Shown in pieces: positions 32,367 through 45,137 of a DNA stretch of 64,000 bases. This DNA comes from Escherichia coli (GTDB taxonomy: Bacteria > Pseudomonadota > Gammaproteobacteria > Enterobacterales > Enterobacteriaceae): NCBI RefSeq assembly GCF_003334255.1, contig NZ_QOWU01000015.1; one strand, written 5' to 3'. The position numbers were made by a program, and so were the translations under genes. The notes under the pieces are model-generated. The model ran no database searches, had not been told where the DNA came from, and saw only the letters and a list, made by a program, of their open reading frames with translations. Each line of letters begins with the position of its first letter. Within the stretch, counting starts at the first letter, position 1.

Positions 32367-33979
<1,613 letters not shown>

Positions 33980-37223: not shown

Positions 37224-37247
37224 TTTGACCCTGCACTATGAATGAAC

Positions 37248-37277
37248 AAAACCCTCTGTTACTACAGAGGGTTTTTT
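37248..37277. terminator. bidirectional intrinsic terminator between guaA and yfgI
   Basis: aaaaccctctgt-tact-acagagggtttttt. Confidence 0.8.
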
Positions 37278-37315
37278 ATCTTCAAGAATTATAGGATTGA
37301 AGTTACTAACATCGA

Positions 37316-37855
37316 TTAATTAAACCAGCTGTCCGATTTGTTCTCTTCTGCTTTGCCCACGCTTTTCATCAGATCGCGACCGCCTTCAGTCATATTTCTG
37401 TTGGCGTCAGCTTCAGATTGCACCACATCGGTTTGCGCAGCTTTGTGCTTCAGTTCCTGATCGATAAATTCGTTTTCTCGCTTAACGCGGGCTTCTTCTT
37501 TCGCCAGCGCCAGTTTTTGTTTCTGAATCTCTAAGCTGCGTAGCTCATCTTCATAACTTTGATCGCGTTTTTTGTCCGCAGAGGCTTCGGCGTCCAGTTT
37601 ATCCTGACGAGCTTTCTTATTTGCCGCTGCCGTTGCCGCTCTTTTGTTAGCGGCGGCCTGGGCATTTGCGCGACGTTGCTTCTCTTGCTGGATTTCCCTG
37701 TTGCGCTCCGCGACCCATTCGTCATGCTGCCTTTGCTCTTCATTTTTACCTTGCTGTTCCGCTTCTGCGACAGCAGAGAGTTGATCCTGCAATGATGAGG
37801 CGATAGCCGGATAGCTTAAGGAGGCTAAGATGGCGCAAAGAAAAACTTTCTTCAT
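37316..37855 (-). CDS. yfgI: secreted coiled-coil, K/E/Q/A-rich protein YfgI
   Basis: 179 aa; signal peptide then highly charged low-complexity sequence. Confidence 0.85.
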   Translation of the reverse strand: MKKVFLCAILASLSYPAIASSLQDQLSAVAEAEQQGKNEEQRQHDEWVAERNREIQQEKQRRANAQAAANKRAATAAANKKARQDKLDAEASADKKRDQSYEDELRSLEIQKQKLALAKEEARVKRENEFIDQELKHKAAQTDVVQSEADANRNMTEGGRDLMKSVGKAEENKSDSWFN

Positions 37856-37870
37856 GACTCCTCCTGATTA

Positions 37871-38389
37871 TTAGCTCTTTTCAGGACATTTGGTATTTGG
37901 CTGAATACGCGTTTCGTTATACGTCGTGGTAATAACAACGGCTAAACCTGTCGTAAACTGGCACTCTTTACCCACCTGGGTAGAGGTATACACTTTGGTG
38001 CCTTCCTTATAGGTTAAAGAAACACCTTCCACTAAGGTTTTATCATTCACCATAGAACCCGCTGCCGCGCCTACAGCTCCGCCGCCAACTGCACCTGCCG
38101 TCGTTCCGGAATTGCTGCCAGACCCGACGTTGTGGCCGATAACACCGCCAGCGACTGCGCCAATAAGCGCGCCGAAGGCTTGTGCGTTCCGTTTATTTTG
38201 GGAGTTGTCTACGGCAACTTTTGCGGGAAGAATGGAAATAATATTAACGGTTTTAGTTTCTTGTTTGGTATTCAGTTGATCGGTTTGATAAACATCGGCA
38301 GCATGATCGTCAGCATTTGACTGGCATCCTGCCAGAGTGAATGACGCTAACATTGCCACAGGCAGAAGACATTTTTTAAATTTCATCAC
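37871..38389 (-). CDS. yfgH: outer-membrane lipoprotein with glycine-zipper domain YfgH
   Basis: 172 aa; lipobox FTLAGC; GxxxG-rich segment. Confidence 0.85.
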   Translation of the reverse strand: MMKFKKCLLPVAMLASFTLAGCQSNADDHAADVYQTDQLNTKQETKTVNIISILPAKVAVDNSQNKRNAQAFGALIGAVAGGVIGHNVGSGSNSGTTAGAVGGGAVGAAAGSMVNDKTLVEGVSLTYKEGTKVYTSTQVGKECQFTTGLAVVITTTYNETRIQPNTKCPEKS

Positions 38390-38699
38390 TATTCCTTGTT
38401 ATACACATTACGAAAAATAAGACATTTAAGATCATCAAAAGAGGAAAGTAAATGTATTGCGTATAAAGGGATAGATTAAATTTATTAAAATTCACGCAGG
38501 GAATAATTTATAAAAATATATCATTACAACATATATATTAATTTTATATTTATTTCGCAGCCAAACAGGATAAACATCAGTCAGGATAAAGACGTAAAAT
38601 TTAAGATGAAAGAATATCTGCCGCTTTGATAATCCCAAACAGCAAAAGCATCCGACAGCGAAGTGCCGTTATGTTCTGTGAAAGTGGAGAAGGTAACCG

Positions 38700-38891
38700 C
38701 TAACGTTGTACCGGTGATTCGACGGAGAGTGTGGATTGCTGAGCTTCTTTTTTGCTCTGATGGTGCTGCCAGGCACCGACGGACGAGTAGATAAAACGGC
38801 CAAAGAAGAAGATAAAGCTGATGAGCAGTACGATACGGGTCATGCGACTGTTAAATCGGTGTCGTTTTCGCATACTGGTTGCCTGACTCAC
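38700..38891 (-). CDS. yfgG: small membrane protein YfgG
   Basis: 63 aa, one TM helix, flanked by AT-rich DNA. Confidence 0.8.
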   Translation of the reverse strand: MSQATSMRKRHRFNSRMTRIVLLISFIFFFGRFIYSSVGAWQHHQSKKEAQQSTLSVESPVQR

Positions 38892-39101
38892 AAAAGGTTC
38901 CTTGAAGTATGTCCCACGCTGTGGACGGTACTTACATTAAGGCACAACAGGACAAAATGGTCAATTCTTCGTTATGTAAAAAAGCGTCAGTGGATACATA
39001 TTTTAATGTTATGGAAGTTAATTTAATTATTTACAATGATGATGTAATAATGATGAATTAACATGATAAACGTAATAATTCATTAATCAGGGTTATTTTG
39101 T

Positions 39102-39115
39102 TTGATATATATCAA
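39102..39115 (+). promoter_or_regulatory. perfect FNR consensus box TTGAT-N4-ATCAA upstream of pdeF
   Basis: ttgatatatatcaa read directly from sequence, ~130 bp upstream of the pdeF start. Confidence 0.65.
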
Positions 39116-39242
39116 TTGGTACTTTCATATGACACTTAGAATCAATGCTCTCTATAGTGATGAATAATCATCATTCGAAGTCAGGTGGGATGCCTGTCTG
39201 AATACACCTCCTTCAGGATGTGGGGGATTCTGCTGAGCATCT

Positions 39243-41486
39243 ATGAAACTGAATGCAACTTATATAAAAATACGTGATAAATGGTGGGGGCTTCCGCTGT
39301 TCCTGCCTTCTTTAATCTTGCCCATTTTCGCCCACATTAATACTTTCGCGCATATTTCTTCCGGTGAGGTTTTTCTCTTTTATCTGCCTCTGGCACTGAT
39401 GATCAGCATGATGATGTTTTTCAGCTGGGCGGCATTGCCAGGGATCGCCTTAGGGATTTTTGTCCGCAAATATGCAGAGCTGGGTTTTTACGAAACGCTA
39501 TCATTAACGGCTAATTTTATTATCATTATCATTCTCTGTTGGGGCGGTTACAGGGTCTTTACTCCCCGGCGTAACAACGTTTCACATGGTGATACCCGTT
39601 TAATTTCCCAGCGTATATTCTGGCAGATTGTGTTTCCTGCAACGCTGTTTCTGATACTTTTCCAGTTTGCTGCATTTGTAGGATTACTGGCGAGCAGAGA
39701 AAATCTGGTCGGTGTCATGCCTTTTAACCTCGGGACTTTAATCAATTATCAGGCCTTACTGGTGGGTAATCTGATCGGTGTCCCGCTGTGCTACTTCATC
39801 ATTCGGGTAGTGCGAAATCCATTTTATTTACGTAGCTATTATTCGCAATTAAAACAGCAGGTTGATGCCAAAGTCACCAAAAAAGAGTTCGCGCTCTGGC
39901 TACTGGCATTAGGTGCTTTATTGTTGCTGTTATGCATGCCGTTAAATGAAAAAAGCACAATTTTTAGCACCAATTATACCTTGTCATTATTGCTGCCCCT
40001 GATGATGTGGGGAGCGATGCGCTATGGTTATAAGCTGATTTCGCTGCTCTGGGCGGTCGTGTTGATGATCAGCATCCACAGCTATCAAAATTACATTCCC
40101 ATTTATCCTGGCTATACCACGCAGCTGACCATAACCTCCTCCAGTTATCTGGTATTCTCTTTTATTGTCAATTATATGGCTGTACTGGCAACCCGTCAGA
40201 GAGCGGTAGTCAGACGCATTCAGCGGCTTGCGTATGTGGACCCGGTGGTTCATCTGCCAAATGTTCGCGCCCTGAATCGCGCGTTGCGTGATGCCCCCTG
40301 GTCTGCGCTTTGTTATTTACGCATCCCTGGCATGGAAATGCTGGTTAAGAACTATGGCATCATGCTGCGGATTCAATACAAGCAAAAACTTTCTCACTGG
40401 CTGTCACCCTTGCTGGAACCGGGTGAAGATGTTTATCAGCTTTCGGGTAACGATCTCGCGCTGCGACTGAATACAGAATCGCACCAGGAGCGCATTACCG
40501 CACTGGATAGCCATCTCAAGCAATTTCGTTTCTTTTGGGATGGCATGCCGATGCAACCGCAGATTGGCGTCAGTTACTGCTATGTGCGCTCGCCAGTGAA
40601 TCATATCTACCTGCTGCTGGGAGAGCTAAATACGGTCGCCGAACTTTCCATCGTGACCAACGCCCCGGAAAATATGCAGCGTCGCGGGGCAATGTATTTG
40701 CAACGCGAATTGAAAGATAAAGTCGCGATGATGAATCGACTACAGCAGGCGCTGGAACACAACCATTTTTTCCTGATGGCCCAGCCGATTACCGGTATGC
40801 GTGGTGATGTTTACCATGAAATTCTTCTGCGCATGAAAGGTGAGAATGATGAACTGATCAGCCCCGATAGCTTCTTGCCGGTCGCACACGAATTTGGTTT
40901 ATCGTCGAGTATCGACATGTGGGTCATTGAGCATACGCTGCAATTTATGGCTGAAAACAGAGCGAAGATGCCCGCTCACCGTTTTGCTATTAATCTGTCT
41001 CCAACCTCGGTATGTCAGGCTCGTTTTCCTGTTGAAGTCAGTCAGTTGCTGGCTAAATATCAGATTGAAGCGTGGCAACTTATTTTTGAAGTCACCGAAA
41101 GTAATGCTCTGACCAATGTTAAGCAGGCGCAAATCACCTTGCAGCATCTTCAGGAATTAGGCTGCCAGATTGCGATTGATGATTTCGGCACCGGCTACGC
41201 CAGCTATGCGCGGCTTAAAAATGTGAATGCCGATCTGCTTAAAATTGACGGCAGTTTTATCCGCAATATTGTGTCAAATAGTCTGGATTATCAGATAGTG
41301 GCATCGATTTGCCACCTGGCGCGAATGAAGAAAATGCTGGTAGTGGCAGAGTACGTTGAAAACGAAGAGATCCGCGAGGCGGTGCTCTCTTTGGGGATCG
41401 ATTATATGCAGGGTTATCTTATTGGTAAGCCGCAGCCGTTAATTGATACGCTGAATGAAATCGAACCCATTCGCGAAAGTGCCTGA
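39243..41486 (+). CDS. pdeF: c-di-GMP phosphodiesterase PdeF (MASE1 membrane domain, degenerate GGDEF, EAL)
   Basis: 747 aa; N-terminal multi-TM region; C-terminal EAL-type motifs. Confidence 0.93.
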   Translation: MKLNATYIKIRDKWWGLPLFLPSLILPIFAHINTFAHISSGEVFLFYLPLALMISMMMFFSWAALPGIALGIFVRKYAELGFYETLSLTANFIIIIILCWGGYRVFTPRRNNVSHGDTRLISQRIFWQIVFPATLFLILFQFAAFVGLLASRENLVGVMPFNLGTLINYQALLVGNLIGVPLCYFIIRVVRNPFYLRSYYSQLKQQVDAKVTKKEFALWLLALGALLLLLCMPLNEKSTIFSTNYTLSLLLPLMMWGAMRYGYKLISLLWAVVLMISIHSYQNYIPIYPGYTTQLTITSSSYLVFSFIVNYMAVLATRQRAVVRRIQRLAYVDPVVHLPNVRALNRALRDAPWSALCYLRIPGMEMLVKNYGIMLRIQYKQKLSHWLSPLLEPGEDVYQLSGNDLALRLNTESHQERITALDSHLKQFRFFWDGMPMQPQIGVSYCYVRSPVNHIYLLLGELNTVAELSIVTNAPENMQRRGAMYLQRELKDKVAMMNRLQQALEHNHFFLMAQPITGMRGDVYHEILLRMKGENDELISPDSFLPVAHEFGLSSSIDMWVIEHTLQFMAENRAKMPAHRFAINLSPTSVCQARFPVEVSQLLAKYQIEAWQLIFEVTESNALTNVKQAQITLQHLQELGCQIAIDDFGTGYASYARLKNVNADLLKIDGSFIRNIVSNSLDYQIVASICHLARMKKMLVVAEYVENEEIREAVLSLGIDYMQGYLIGKPQPLIDTLNEIEPIRESA

Positions 41487-41524
41487 ATAATGCGGGCCGA
41501 CATTTCTCGTCGGCCCGCAAAGTA

Positions 41525-45137
<3,613 letters not shown>

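Follow-up and report, generated by a model that had tools for sequence, protein, structure and literature searches.

The FNR box upstream of pdeF (yfgF) in Escherichia coli: a known site, its conserved spacing and a conserved 5' leader

Considering that a perfect inverted repeat of the FNR type lies in the spacer between yfgG and pdeF (yfgF) of Escherichia coli, the question arises whether this repeat acts as an operator and, if so, for which of the two genes. The locus was investigated in the window, by which we mean the whole 64-kb stretch of DNA analyzed here; its identity to E. coli genomes reached 100%. In the RefSeq annotation of identical E. coli DNA, the spacer is flanked by guaB, guaA, yfgI, yfgH, and yfgG in one direction and by pdeF and ppx in the other. 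The regulated gene, pdeF (39243-41486, plus strand; open reading frame and RefSeq annotation), encodes a c-di-GMP phosphodiesterase of 747 amino acids. Pfam recognized a MASE1 domain (15-320) and an EAL domain (498-730) in this protein and returned no match for GGDEF, which is consistent with the degenerate GGDEF/EAL protein described in the first-pass annotation. Its neighbor yfgG (38700-38891, minus strand; open reading frame and annotation) encodes 63 amino acids and is divergent from pdeF. A 911-bp query was matched at 95-100% identity by 5,423 of 5,426 complete E. coli genomes, and 61 of these 5,423 covered less than 80% of the 911-bp region. The window runs opposite to the published K-12 coordinates, and positions (w) were converted as K12 = 2627088 + (39108.5 - w). 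The conversion was checked with the FNR site of guaB/xseA, which was predicted at 33956.5 and found at 33950-33963.

The repeat TTGATATATATCAA occupies positions 39102-39115 and, as read from the sequence, is a perfect palindrome centered at 39108.5. It matches TTGAT-N4-ATCAA at all 10 consensus positions, and its half-sites are of the FNR type (TTGA/TCAA). When TTGATNNNNATCAA was searched on both strands of the 64-kb window, these 14 bp were the single exact match, in agreement with the exact consensus box that had been reported there. The reported distance of about 130 bp to the start of pdeF (39243) was also accurate: we measured 134.5 bp from the center of the box and 128 bp from its end. 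About 0.07 exact TTGAT-N4-ATCAA boxes are expected per 64 kb, and at least one was present in 7 of 100 dinucleotide shuffles of the window; shuffling the 351-bp yfgG-pdeF spacer alone (66% A+T) gave a perfect box in 64 of 20,000 cases (0.3%). If one mismatch was allowed, two further sites appeared in the window, which is no excess over chance. Moreover, perfect consensus boxes without FNR in vivo exist, for example, within sucC, purU, and yehB (Myers et al. 2013, Table S6, PMC3688515). Because of these shuffle rates and of the perfect boxes that are unoccupied in vivo elsewhere, a perfect box is unusual but proves nothing alone. The window also contains the published guaB/xseA FNR ChIP-seq site TTGATCTCGCTCAC (33950-33963, minus strand), which was missed by the search for perfect boxes because it has two mismatches to the consensus.

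The FNR site of pdeF is already known, since it was published in 2010 and found again genome-wide in 2013; the observation is correct and ordinary. The passages of PMC3718329 that restate Lacey, Partridge and Green (2010) place the FNR box of yfgF, TTGAT--ATCAA, at -41.5 and name TAGAAT as the -10 hexamer. To the extent given there, the K-12 promoter is the same DNA as ours, with the same box, the same -41.5 position and the same TAGAAT, and no difference at the site. The same passages describe yfgF as activated by FNR and maximally expressed under anaerobic conditions (citing Lacey 2010, Microbiology 156:2873), and the counterpart of the promoter in Salmonella (Enteritidis) is listed with TTGAC--ATCAA and TACAAT (PMC3718329). 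In the RegulonDB curation, FNR is an activator of yfgF under anaerobiosis. Furthermore, PdeF was among 4 of 29 GGDEF/EAL proteins that were below detection in the cultures of PMC5635695, which the authors ascribed to anaerobic induction. Dependence of pdeF on FNR and on oxygen, which the first-pass annotation had proposed, has thus been demonstrated by published experiment (PMC3718329; RegulonDB; PMC5635695), with the caveat that wild-type cells in glucose minimal medium (GMM) showed no FNR-dependent change.

FNR occupancy has been demonstrated as well. In the FNR ChIP-seq data of Myers et al. (2013; PMC3688515), the kind of evidence that had been suggested as a check, a peak at 2627146 lies at yfgF/yfgG and was assigned to yfgF, and the predicted site beneath it, at 2627088, is exactly the 14-mer TTGATATATATCAA (PatSer 16.08, flagged at a ChIP-seq peak; Tables S5 and S6). 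In the same study, yfgF was listed with an FNR peak and no FNR-dependent change in wild type in GMM (Table S9), was absent from the wild-type aerobic/anaerobic expression table, and had no co-regulator given ("Unknown"). The large anaerobic sigma70 ChIP peak (2627279) maps to the yfgG promoter, not to that of pdeF (Myers et al. 2013). As there was no FNR-dependent change in wild-type GMM cultures, the size of the FNR effect on yfgF depends on conditions.

The hexamer TAGAAT, named as the -10 in PMC3718329, was found at 39137-39142 on the plus strand, 21 bp after the box, and it matches the -10 consensus at 5 of 6 positions. From its position, transcription of pdeF is predicted to start at 39149-39151 on the plus strand (+1 at ~39150). 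Since the box ends 21 bp before TAGAAT and the start would lie about 7 nt after this hexamer, the center of the box would fall at -41.5. In the place of a -35 hexamer, 16-18 bp upstream of TAGAAT, the sequences ATTGGT, AATTGG, and CAATTG match TTGACA at only 0-1 of 6 positions, and a promoter scan did not pair the TAGAAT -10 with any -35. A center at -41.5 together with a -10 that has no -35 points to a promoter of the class II activator-dependent type. The promoter scan also reported a sigma70-like ATGACA-18-TATAGT at 39129-39158 (plus strand), which matches the consensus at 10 of 12 positions and overlaps the FNR-dependent promoter; in the alignment it was present only in Escherichia and absent from the other genera.

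The conservation of this geometry was established in two independent samples, neither of which was selected by the box. For the first, pdeF orthologue loci were fetched by protein similarity, which gave 14 genome loci with upstream DNA from Escherichia spp., Enterobacter asburiae, two Phytobacter, six Kluyvera, and one other member of the Enterobacteriaceae. Outside Escherichia, PdeF was only 57-63% identical. All 14 loci had a box with 0-1 mismatch located 124-143 bp before the start codon, and TAGAAT or TAAAAT followed it at a distance of exactly 21 bp in each case. The second sample came from a metagenome scan keyed on an 18-mer of the pdeF leader; 42 of its 80 matches were unrelated chance matches or clonal, and 38 were pdeF loci. 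All 37 of these loci with enough upstream sequence carried a box (0-1 mismatch) 21 bp before TAnAAT. Salmonella, Citrobacter, and Klebsiella loci were captured by name in neither scan. The pooled data comprised 45 unique promoters, all of which conserved the box, as TTGAT-N4-GTCAA (26), TTGAT-N4-ATCAA (11), or TTGAC-N4-ATCAA (8), followed by TAAAAT (33), TAGAAT (6), TATAAT (4), or TACAAT (2) as the -10. In the alignment, TTGA, TCAA, and TAnAAT never changed, in contrast to the N4 core and the 21-bp spacer, whose sequences varied freely; boxes with at most one mismatch occurred elsewhere in the same loci at a background of 1.7e-5 per bp. Half-sites of the CRP type (GTGA/TCAC) were present in none of the 45 promoters. 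The neighborhood was also maintained: in tblastn searches YfgG was found at the same relative position in the 14 loci (74-98% identity) and was better conserved across genera (74-81%) than PdeF, and yfgG was always divergent from pdeF over a spacer of ~350 bp, an arrangement kept in all genera sampled. Relative to the literature, this wider footprint, in which 45 promoters share the 21-bp spacing without exception, and the connection with published H-NS data are the new elements.

With respect to H-NS, the first-pass annotation had described one long AT-rich region (38390-39242). The AT-richness is real, with a GC content of 0.25-0.34 over ~38300-38700 and 0.27-0.31 over ~38900-39200, but the region consists of two pieces, split by yfgG (GC ~0.48). 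The further suggestion that these flanks could be H-NS targets is supported by published experiments. An anaerobic H-NS ChIP-chip region (K-12 2626274-2628408, converted to 37788-39922 of the window; Myers et al. 2013, Table S3) extends over yfgH and yfgG, the two AT-rich spacers, and the FNR box, and reaches ~680 bp into pdeF. The aerobic H-NS region (K-12 2624400-2628963, window ~37233-41796; Table S3) also contains the site, and "HNS" is marked in the yfgG-pdeF spacer in the genomic SELEX of PMC3946193. In an hns stpA mutant, the FNR ChIP-chip signal at the site rose from 0.35 to 1.68 (log2), which was flagged as significant, and the FNR peak at yfgF was found in "WT and hns/stpA" (Myers et al. 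2013). The +O2/-O2 ratio of yfgF in this mutant was 0.23, in a table of genes that are regulated by O2 only in that background (Myers et al. 2013). Table S6 of Myers et al. (2013) gives the overlap with nucleoid-associated proteins as "None" at the yfgF/yfgG site, which conflicts with the H-NS regions in its own Table S3. Considering that FNR is already detectably bound in wild type, H-NS attenuates FNR binding at pdeF and does not mask the site fully. The simplest reading is that FNR binds and that H-NS and growth conditions limit the output. Expression of yfgF is also said to be highest in stationary phase and at 28 C.

Taking the geometry, its conservation, and the published data together, we consider it very probable that pdeF has a class II FNR-activated promoter and that the palindrome is its FNR operator. 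Under anaerobic conditions, FNR with its [4Fe-4S] cluster would dimerize and bind TTGAT-N4-ATCAA at -41.5, where it would stand in for the -35 element and bring sigma70 RNA polymerase to the TAGAAT -10, with a start near 39150. The contacts between FNR and polymerase at pdeF are assumed from general knowledge of class II FNR/CRP promoters. Oxygen would destroy the cluster and leave the promoter silent. The AT-rich, H-NS-bound tract would restrict the access of FNR, and because of this the output of pdeF would depend on conditions besides oxygen.

At nirB and narK, the FNR box is placed where the -35 element would be. These class II promoters resemble that of pdeF in combining a perfect or near-perfect box (TTGATTTACATCAA in narK) with FNR occupancy in vivo (PMC3688515); unlike such canonical promoters, pdeF was grouped by Myers et al. 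(2013) among the operons with a peak and no response in wild-type GMM. The promoters of hlyE and ttdR (Category 7, Myers et al. 2013) are similar to that of pdeF in another way: all have an FNR site positioned for activation in AT-rich DNA covered by H-NS, and their anaerobic induction is revealed or enhanced in hns stpA. In contrast to these H-NS-masked promoters, pdeF has FNR bound already in wild type. The pdeF promoter may be viewed as a clean natural case of a perfect FNR box throttled by H-NS. The site couples the sensing of oxygen by FNR to c-di-GMP turnover via PdeF and hence, in E. coli growing without oxygen, to motility, the properties of the cell surface, and tolerance of peroxide, a link established by experiment in 2010 and borne out genome-wide in 2013. 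What its renewed detection mainly shows is that a true operator can be recognized from sequence alone.

Other readings of the palindrome deserve to be weighed against this one. It could be a chance product of AT-rich intergenic DNA with no regulatory role, as would be allowed by the whole-window shuffles that held a perfect box and by the perfect consensus boxes, five or more, that lack an FNR ChIP-seq peak elsewhere in E. coli. However, the rarity of perfect boxes in the local shuffles, the fixed 21-bp distance to the -10 in 45 unique promoters of several genera with divergent flanks, the binding of FNR in vivo, and the published FNR-dependent expression leave chance with almost no probability. 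We give equally little credence to a CRP site: it is true that the inverted repeats recognized by CRP and by FNR are related and that some sites, such as that of hlyE, are used by both proteins, but TTGA...TCAA is kept in every one of the 45 promoters and GTGA...TCAC in none, and the box has an FNR-matrix score of 16.08 and is situated beneath the FNR ChIP peak. A different proposal accepts the operator and disputes the promoter. In E. coli, ATGACA-18-TATAGT could direct FNR-independent transcription, and pdeF might be expressed mainly from there (start at ~39165), with FNR bound ~56 bp upstream in a non-productive or modulatory position. This would agree with the 10 of 12 matching consensus positions, with the missing FNR-dependent change in wild-type GMM, and with genomic SELEX, in which RpoD holoenzyme alone selected the spacer and the same hexamer pair was proposed (PMC3946193). 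That assignment, however, is a best-match guess within the selected fragment; the two hexamers are not conserved beyond Escherichia, in contrast to the invariant TAnAAT at the class II distance; the published description is that of -41.5 and TAGAAT (PMC3718329); and a strong constitutive promoter would not be expected given that PdeF was below detection in the PMC5635695 cultures, which its authors put down to anaerobic induction. As the main source of pdeF transcripts, the second promoter is thus quite improbable.

The main target of the site might also be the divergent yfgG instead of pdeF, or the two genes together. The ChIP peak carries the label yfgF/yfgG, the strong anaerobic sigma70 peak sits at the yfgG promoter, yfgG was ~2.2-fold up anaerobically in wild type (Table S12 ratio 0.453; Myers et al. 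2013), and the arrangement of yfgG and pdeF is kept in all genera sampled. The yfgG promoter (38936-38964, minus strand) consists of the -35 TTGACC (38964-38959), 17 bp, and the -10 CTTAAT (38941-38936; PMC3946193), and its transcription start at 2627275 (PMC4447067) corresponds to window position ~38922. Both hexamers are within conserved blocks. Class I activation takes place from positions of about -61.5 to -92.5, but the center of the box is ~187 bp from the published yfgG start, well beyond this range. In addition, yfgG is not in the FNR-dependent Table S8 and the peak was assigned to yfgF (Myers et al. 2013), and the box is in register with the -10 of pdeF and not with the elements of yfgG. 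A role of the box at yfgG is therefore unlikely, and the operator of the class II pdeF promoter is still the reading that we adopt.

Downstream of this FNR-activated promoter, the pdeF transcript would begin with a 5' leader of ~93 nt (39150-39242, plus strand, counted from the predicted start). The leaders of the 45 promoters were compared as 43 unique sequences. The block CAGGTnGGATGCCTGyCT, CAGGTGGGATGCCTGTCT in the window (39182-39199, plus strand), varied in these 43 leaders only at the degenerate n and y. It contains a first GGA (39188-39190), and a second GGA follows 25-30 nt downstream, between the block and the start codon; two GGA were present in 43 of 43 leaders. At the start codon, G(C/U)ATCTATG was invariant, while the neighboring sequence and the first codons varied. 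Altogether ~65 nt (39180-39245) were near-invariant across genera in which PdeF is only 57-63% identical, and the leader is better conserved than PdeF itself. With a covariance model of the element, true leaders scored 58-80 bits and chance matches to the 18-mer at most 23 bits, and the window held one copy, at 39180-39245, with 65.2 bits.

Several structures were predicted in the leader. Directly after the predicted start, GUGAUGA-AUAA-UCAUCAU may form a hairpin (39156-39175, plus strand) that differs by clade: GUGAUGA/UCAUCAU in E. coli, CCGCG/CGCGG in Kluyvera, longer GC-rich stems elsewhere, all of unrelated sequence, and none in Phytobacter. This 5'-proximal hairpin may be a 5' stabilizing stem-loop. 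A second hairpin, CCUCC/GGGGG (39207-39211 with 39222-39226, plus strand), would carry the second GGA (39216-39218) in its loop; its arms change compensatorily among leaders (ACCCU/AGGGU, ACCCA/UGGGU, AUACCC/GGGUAU, CCUCC/GGGGG), and the second GGA was unpaired in the minimum free energy (MFE) fold of the local segment in 37 of 43 leaders. Moreover, (GR)GCAUCU, an invariant segment directly in front of the AUG, is the complement of the likewise invariant GGAUGC(CU); in the window, GAGCAUCU (39235-39242, plus strand) is complementary to GGAUGCCU (39188-39195). The GGAUGC/GCAUCU helix and the local hairpin CAGGU-nGGAU-GCCUG cannot form together; the helix occurred in the unconstrained MFE fold of 34 of 43 leaders, and its stability exceeded that of the hairpin by a mean of 3.6 kcal/mol. 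The first GGA was predicted to be base-paired in the most stable fold.

The fold of the single leader sequence was no better than its shuffles (z = -0.36), and the pairs that RNAalifold predicted from 11 leaders were all invariant, with no compensatory change among them. Pairs were also counted in MAFFT and covariance-model alignments, where the support for structure was weak: 86% of cells pair, compared with 27-55% when the partners are slid, and most pairs never vary. A covariation score of 0.066 was reached by 3 of 500 shuffles, but slides of -1 and -3 gave scores as high or higher. Since these slides match or beat the score, structure in the leader is not demonstrated. The conservation of its sequence is thus solid, and a conserved structure is plausible. 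Rfam gave no match to the leader (39150-39242) at E <= 5. Within 38300-39500, it returned four weak matches outside the leader (E 0.38-4.4), which belonged to eukaryotic snoRNA/lncRNA families or to RF03532, a bacterial cis-regulatory family placed at 38862-39082 with 16.5 bits against a gathering threshold of 100 bits. The leader element is absent from Rfam, and no mention of it was found in searchable papers and supplements.

Two GGA about 28 nt apart are reminiscent of leaders regulated by CsrA, such as those of the GGDEF/EAL genes dgcT/ycdT and dgcZ/ydeH (Jonas et al. 2008) and that of glgC. The second GGA of the pdeF leader agrees with the CsrB repeat CAGGAUG, as well as with the SELEX consensus RUACARGGAUGU (PMC7652899) at 7 of its last 8 positions, and in most leaders it is predicted to lie in a hairpin loop. 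Unlike those CsrA-regulated leaders, neither GGA in the pdeF leader overlaps the Shine-Dalgarno position. CsrA binding to yfgF/pdeF, or its regulation by CsrA, was found in none of the searchable papers and supplements, and the CsrA CLIP-seq and prediction supplements searched had no yfgF entry. The CLIP cultures were presumably aerobic, in which case pdeF would be silent and the CLIP result uninformative. We propose only tentatively that 39180-39245 is an undescribed cis-regulatory RNA of ~65 nt, conserved across Enterobacteriaceae, that exerts translational control through CsrA or through a switch that sequesters the ribosome-binding site; this is a real possibility that falls somewhat short of being probable. 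If true, translational control would be added on top of FNR and H-NS, and the breakdown of c-di-GMP without oxygen would be linked with the Csr system or with another signal. The leader is the only lead of this locus with some novelty, and it bears on post-transcriptional control of a c-di-GMP phosphodiesterase.

The AUG in the conserved block was also considered as the start of a conserved upstream open reading frame, which was rejected: a three-codon frame, MPV* or MPA*, was present in 27 of 43 leaders, and length and frame were variable in the rest. In E. coli and Kluyvera, the block AUG opens only the three-codon mini-frame MPV*. In ten of the Enterobacter-like leaders (metagenome loci such as L080, L111, L131, L143, and L158), it is in frame with pdeF with no stop between them, and it would add 17 codons (MPVFxYPLERKGxxRAS) if used.

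Some minor features of the locus were also recorded. Another palindrome, ACATATTTTAATGT at 38996-39009 (AACATTAATTAATGTT in Kluyvera and related genera), is conserved; it lies ~70-85 bp upstream of the yfgG transcription start and ~100 bp upstream of the FNR box. On the same strand as pdeF, RefSeq/PGAP annotates a "hypothetical protein" of 50 amino acids (WP_000017552.1) within the AT-rich spacer (38909-39061). Outside Escherichia, this reading frame had no intact counterpart, and the similarity there is that of the conserved yfgG promoter DNA; for this reason, we rejected it as a real gene, and the annotation is probably spurious. Two E. coli genomes carried insertion sequences at the locus. 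In strain SCPM-O-B-9504 (locus 356-1053), an IS1 lies in the AT-rich spacer between yfgH and yfgG, and the pdeF promoter is intact. In strain E5 (NZ_CP104521.1; 1453-2433, 2501-2666), the IS5-like ISKpn26 replaces yfgG and everything upstream of the pdeF -10, including the FNR box, and similarity to the window resumes at 39135; judged by its DNA, E5 is a natural knock-out of the FNR site.
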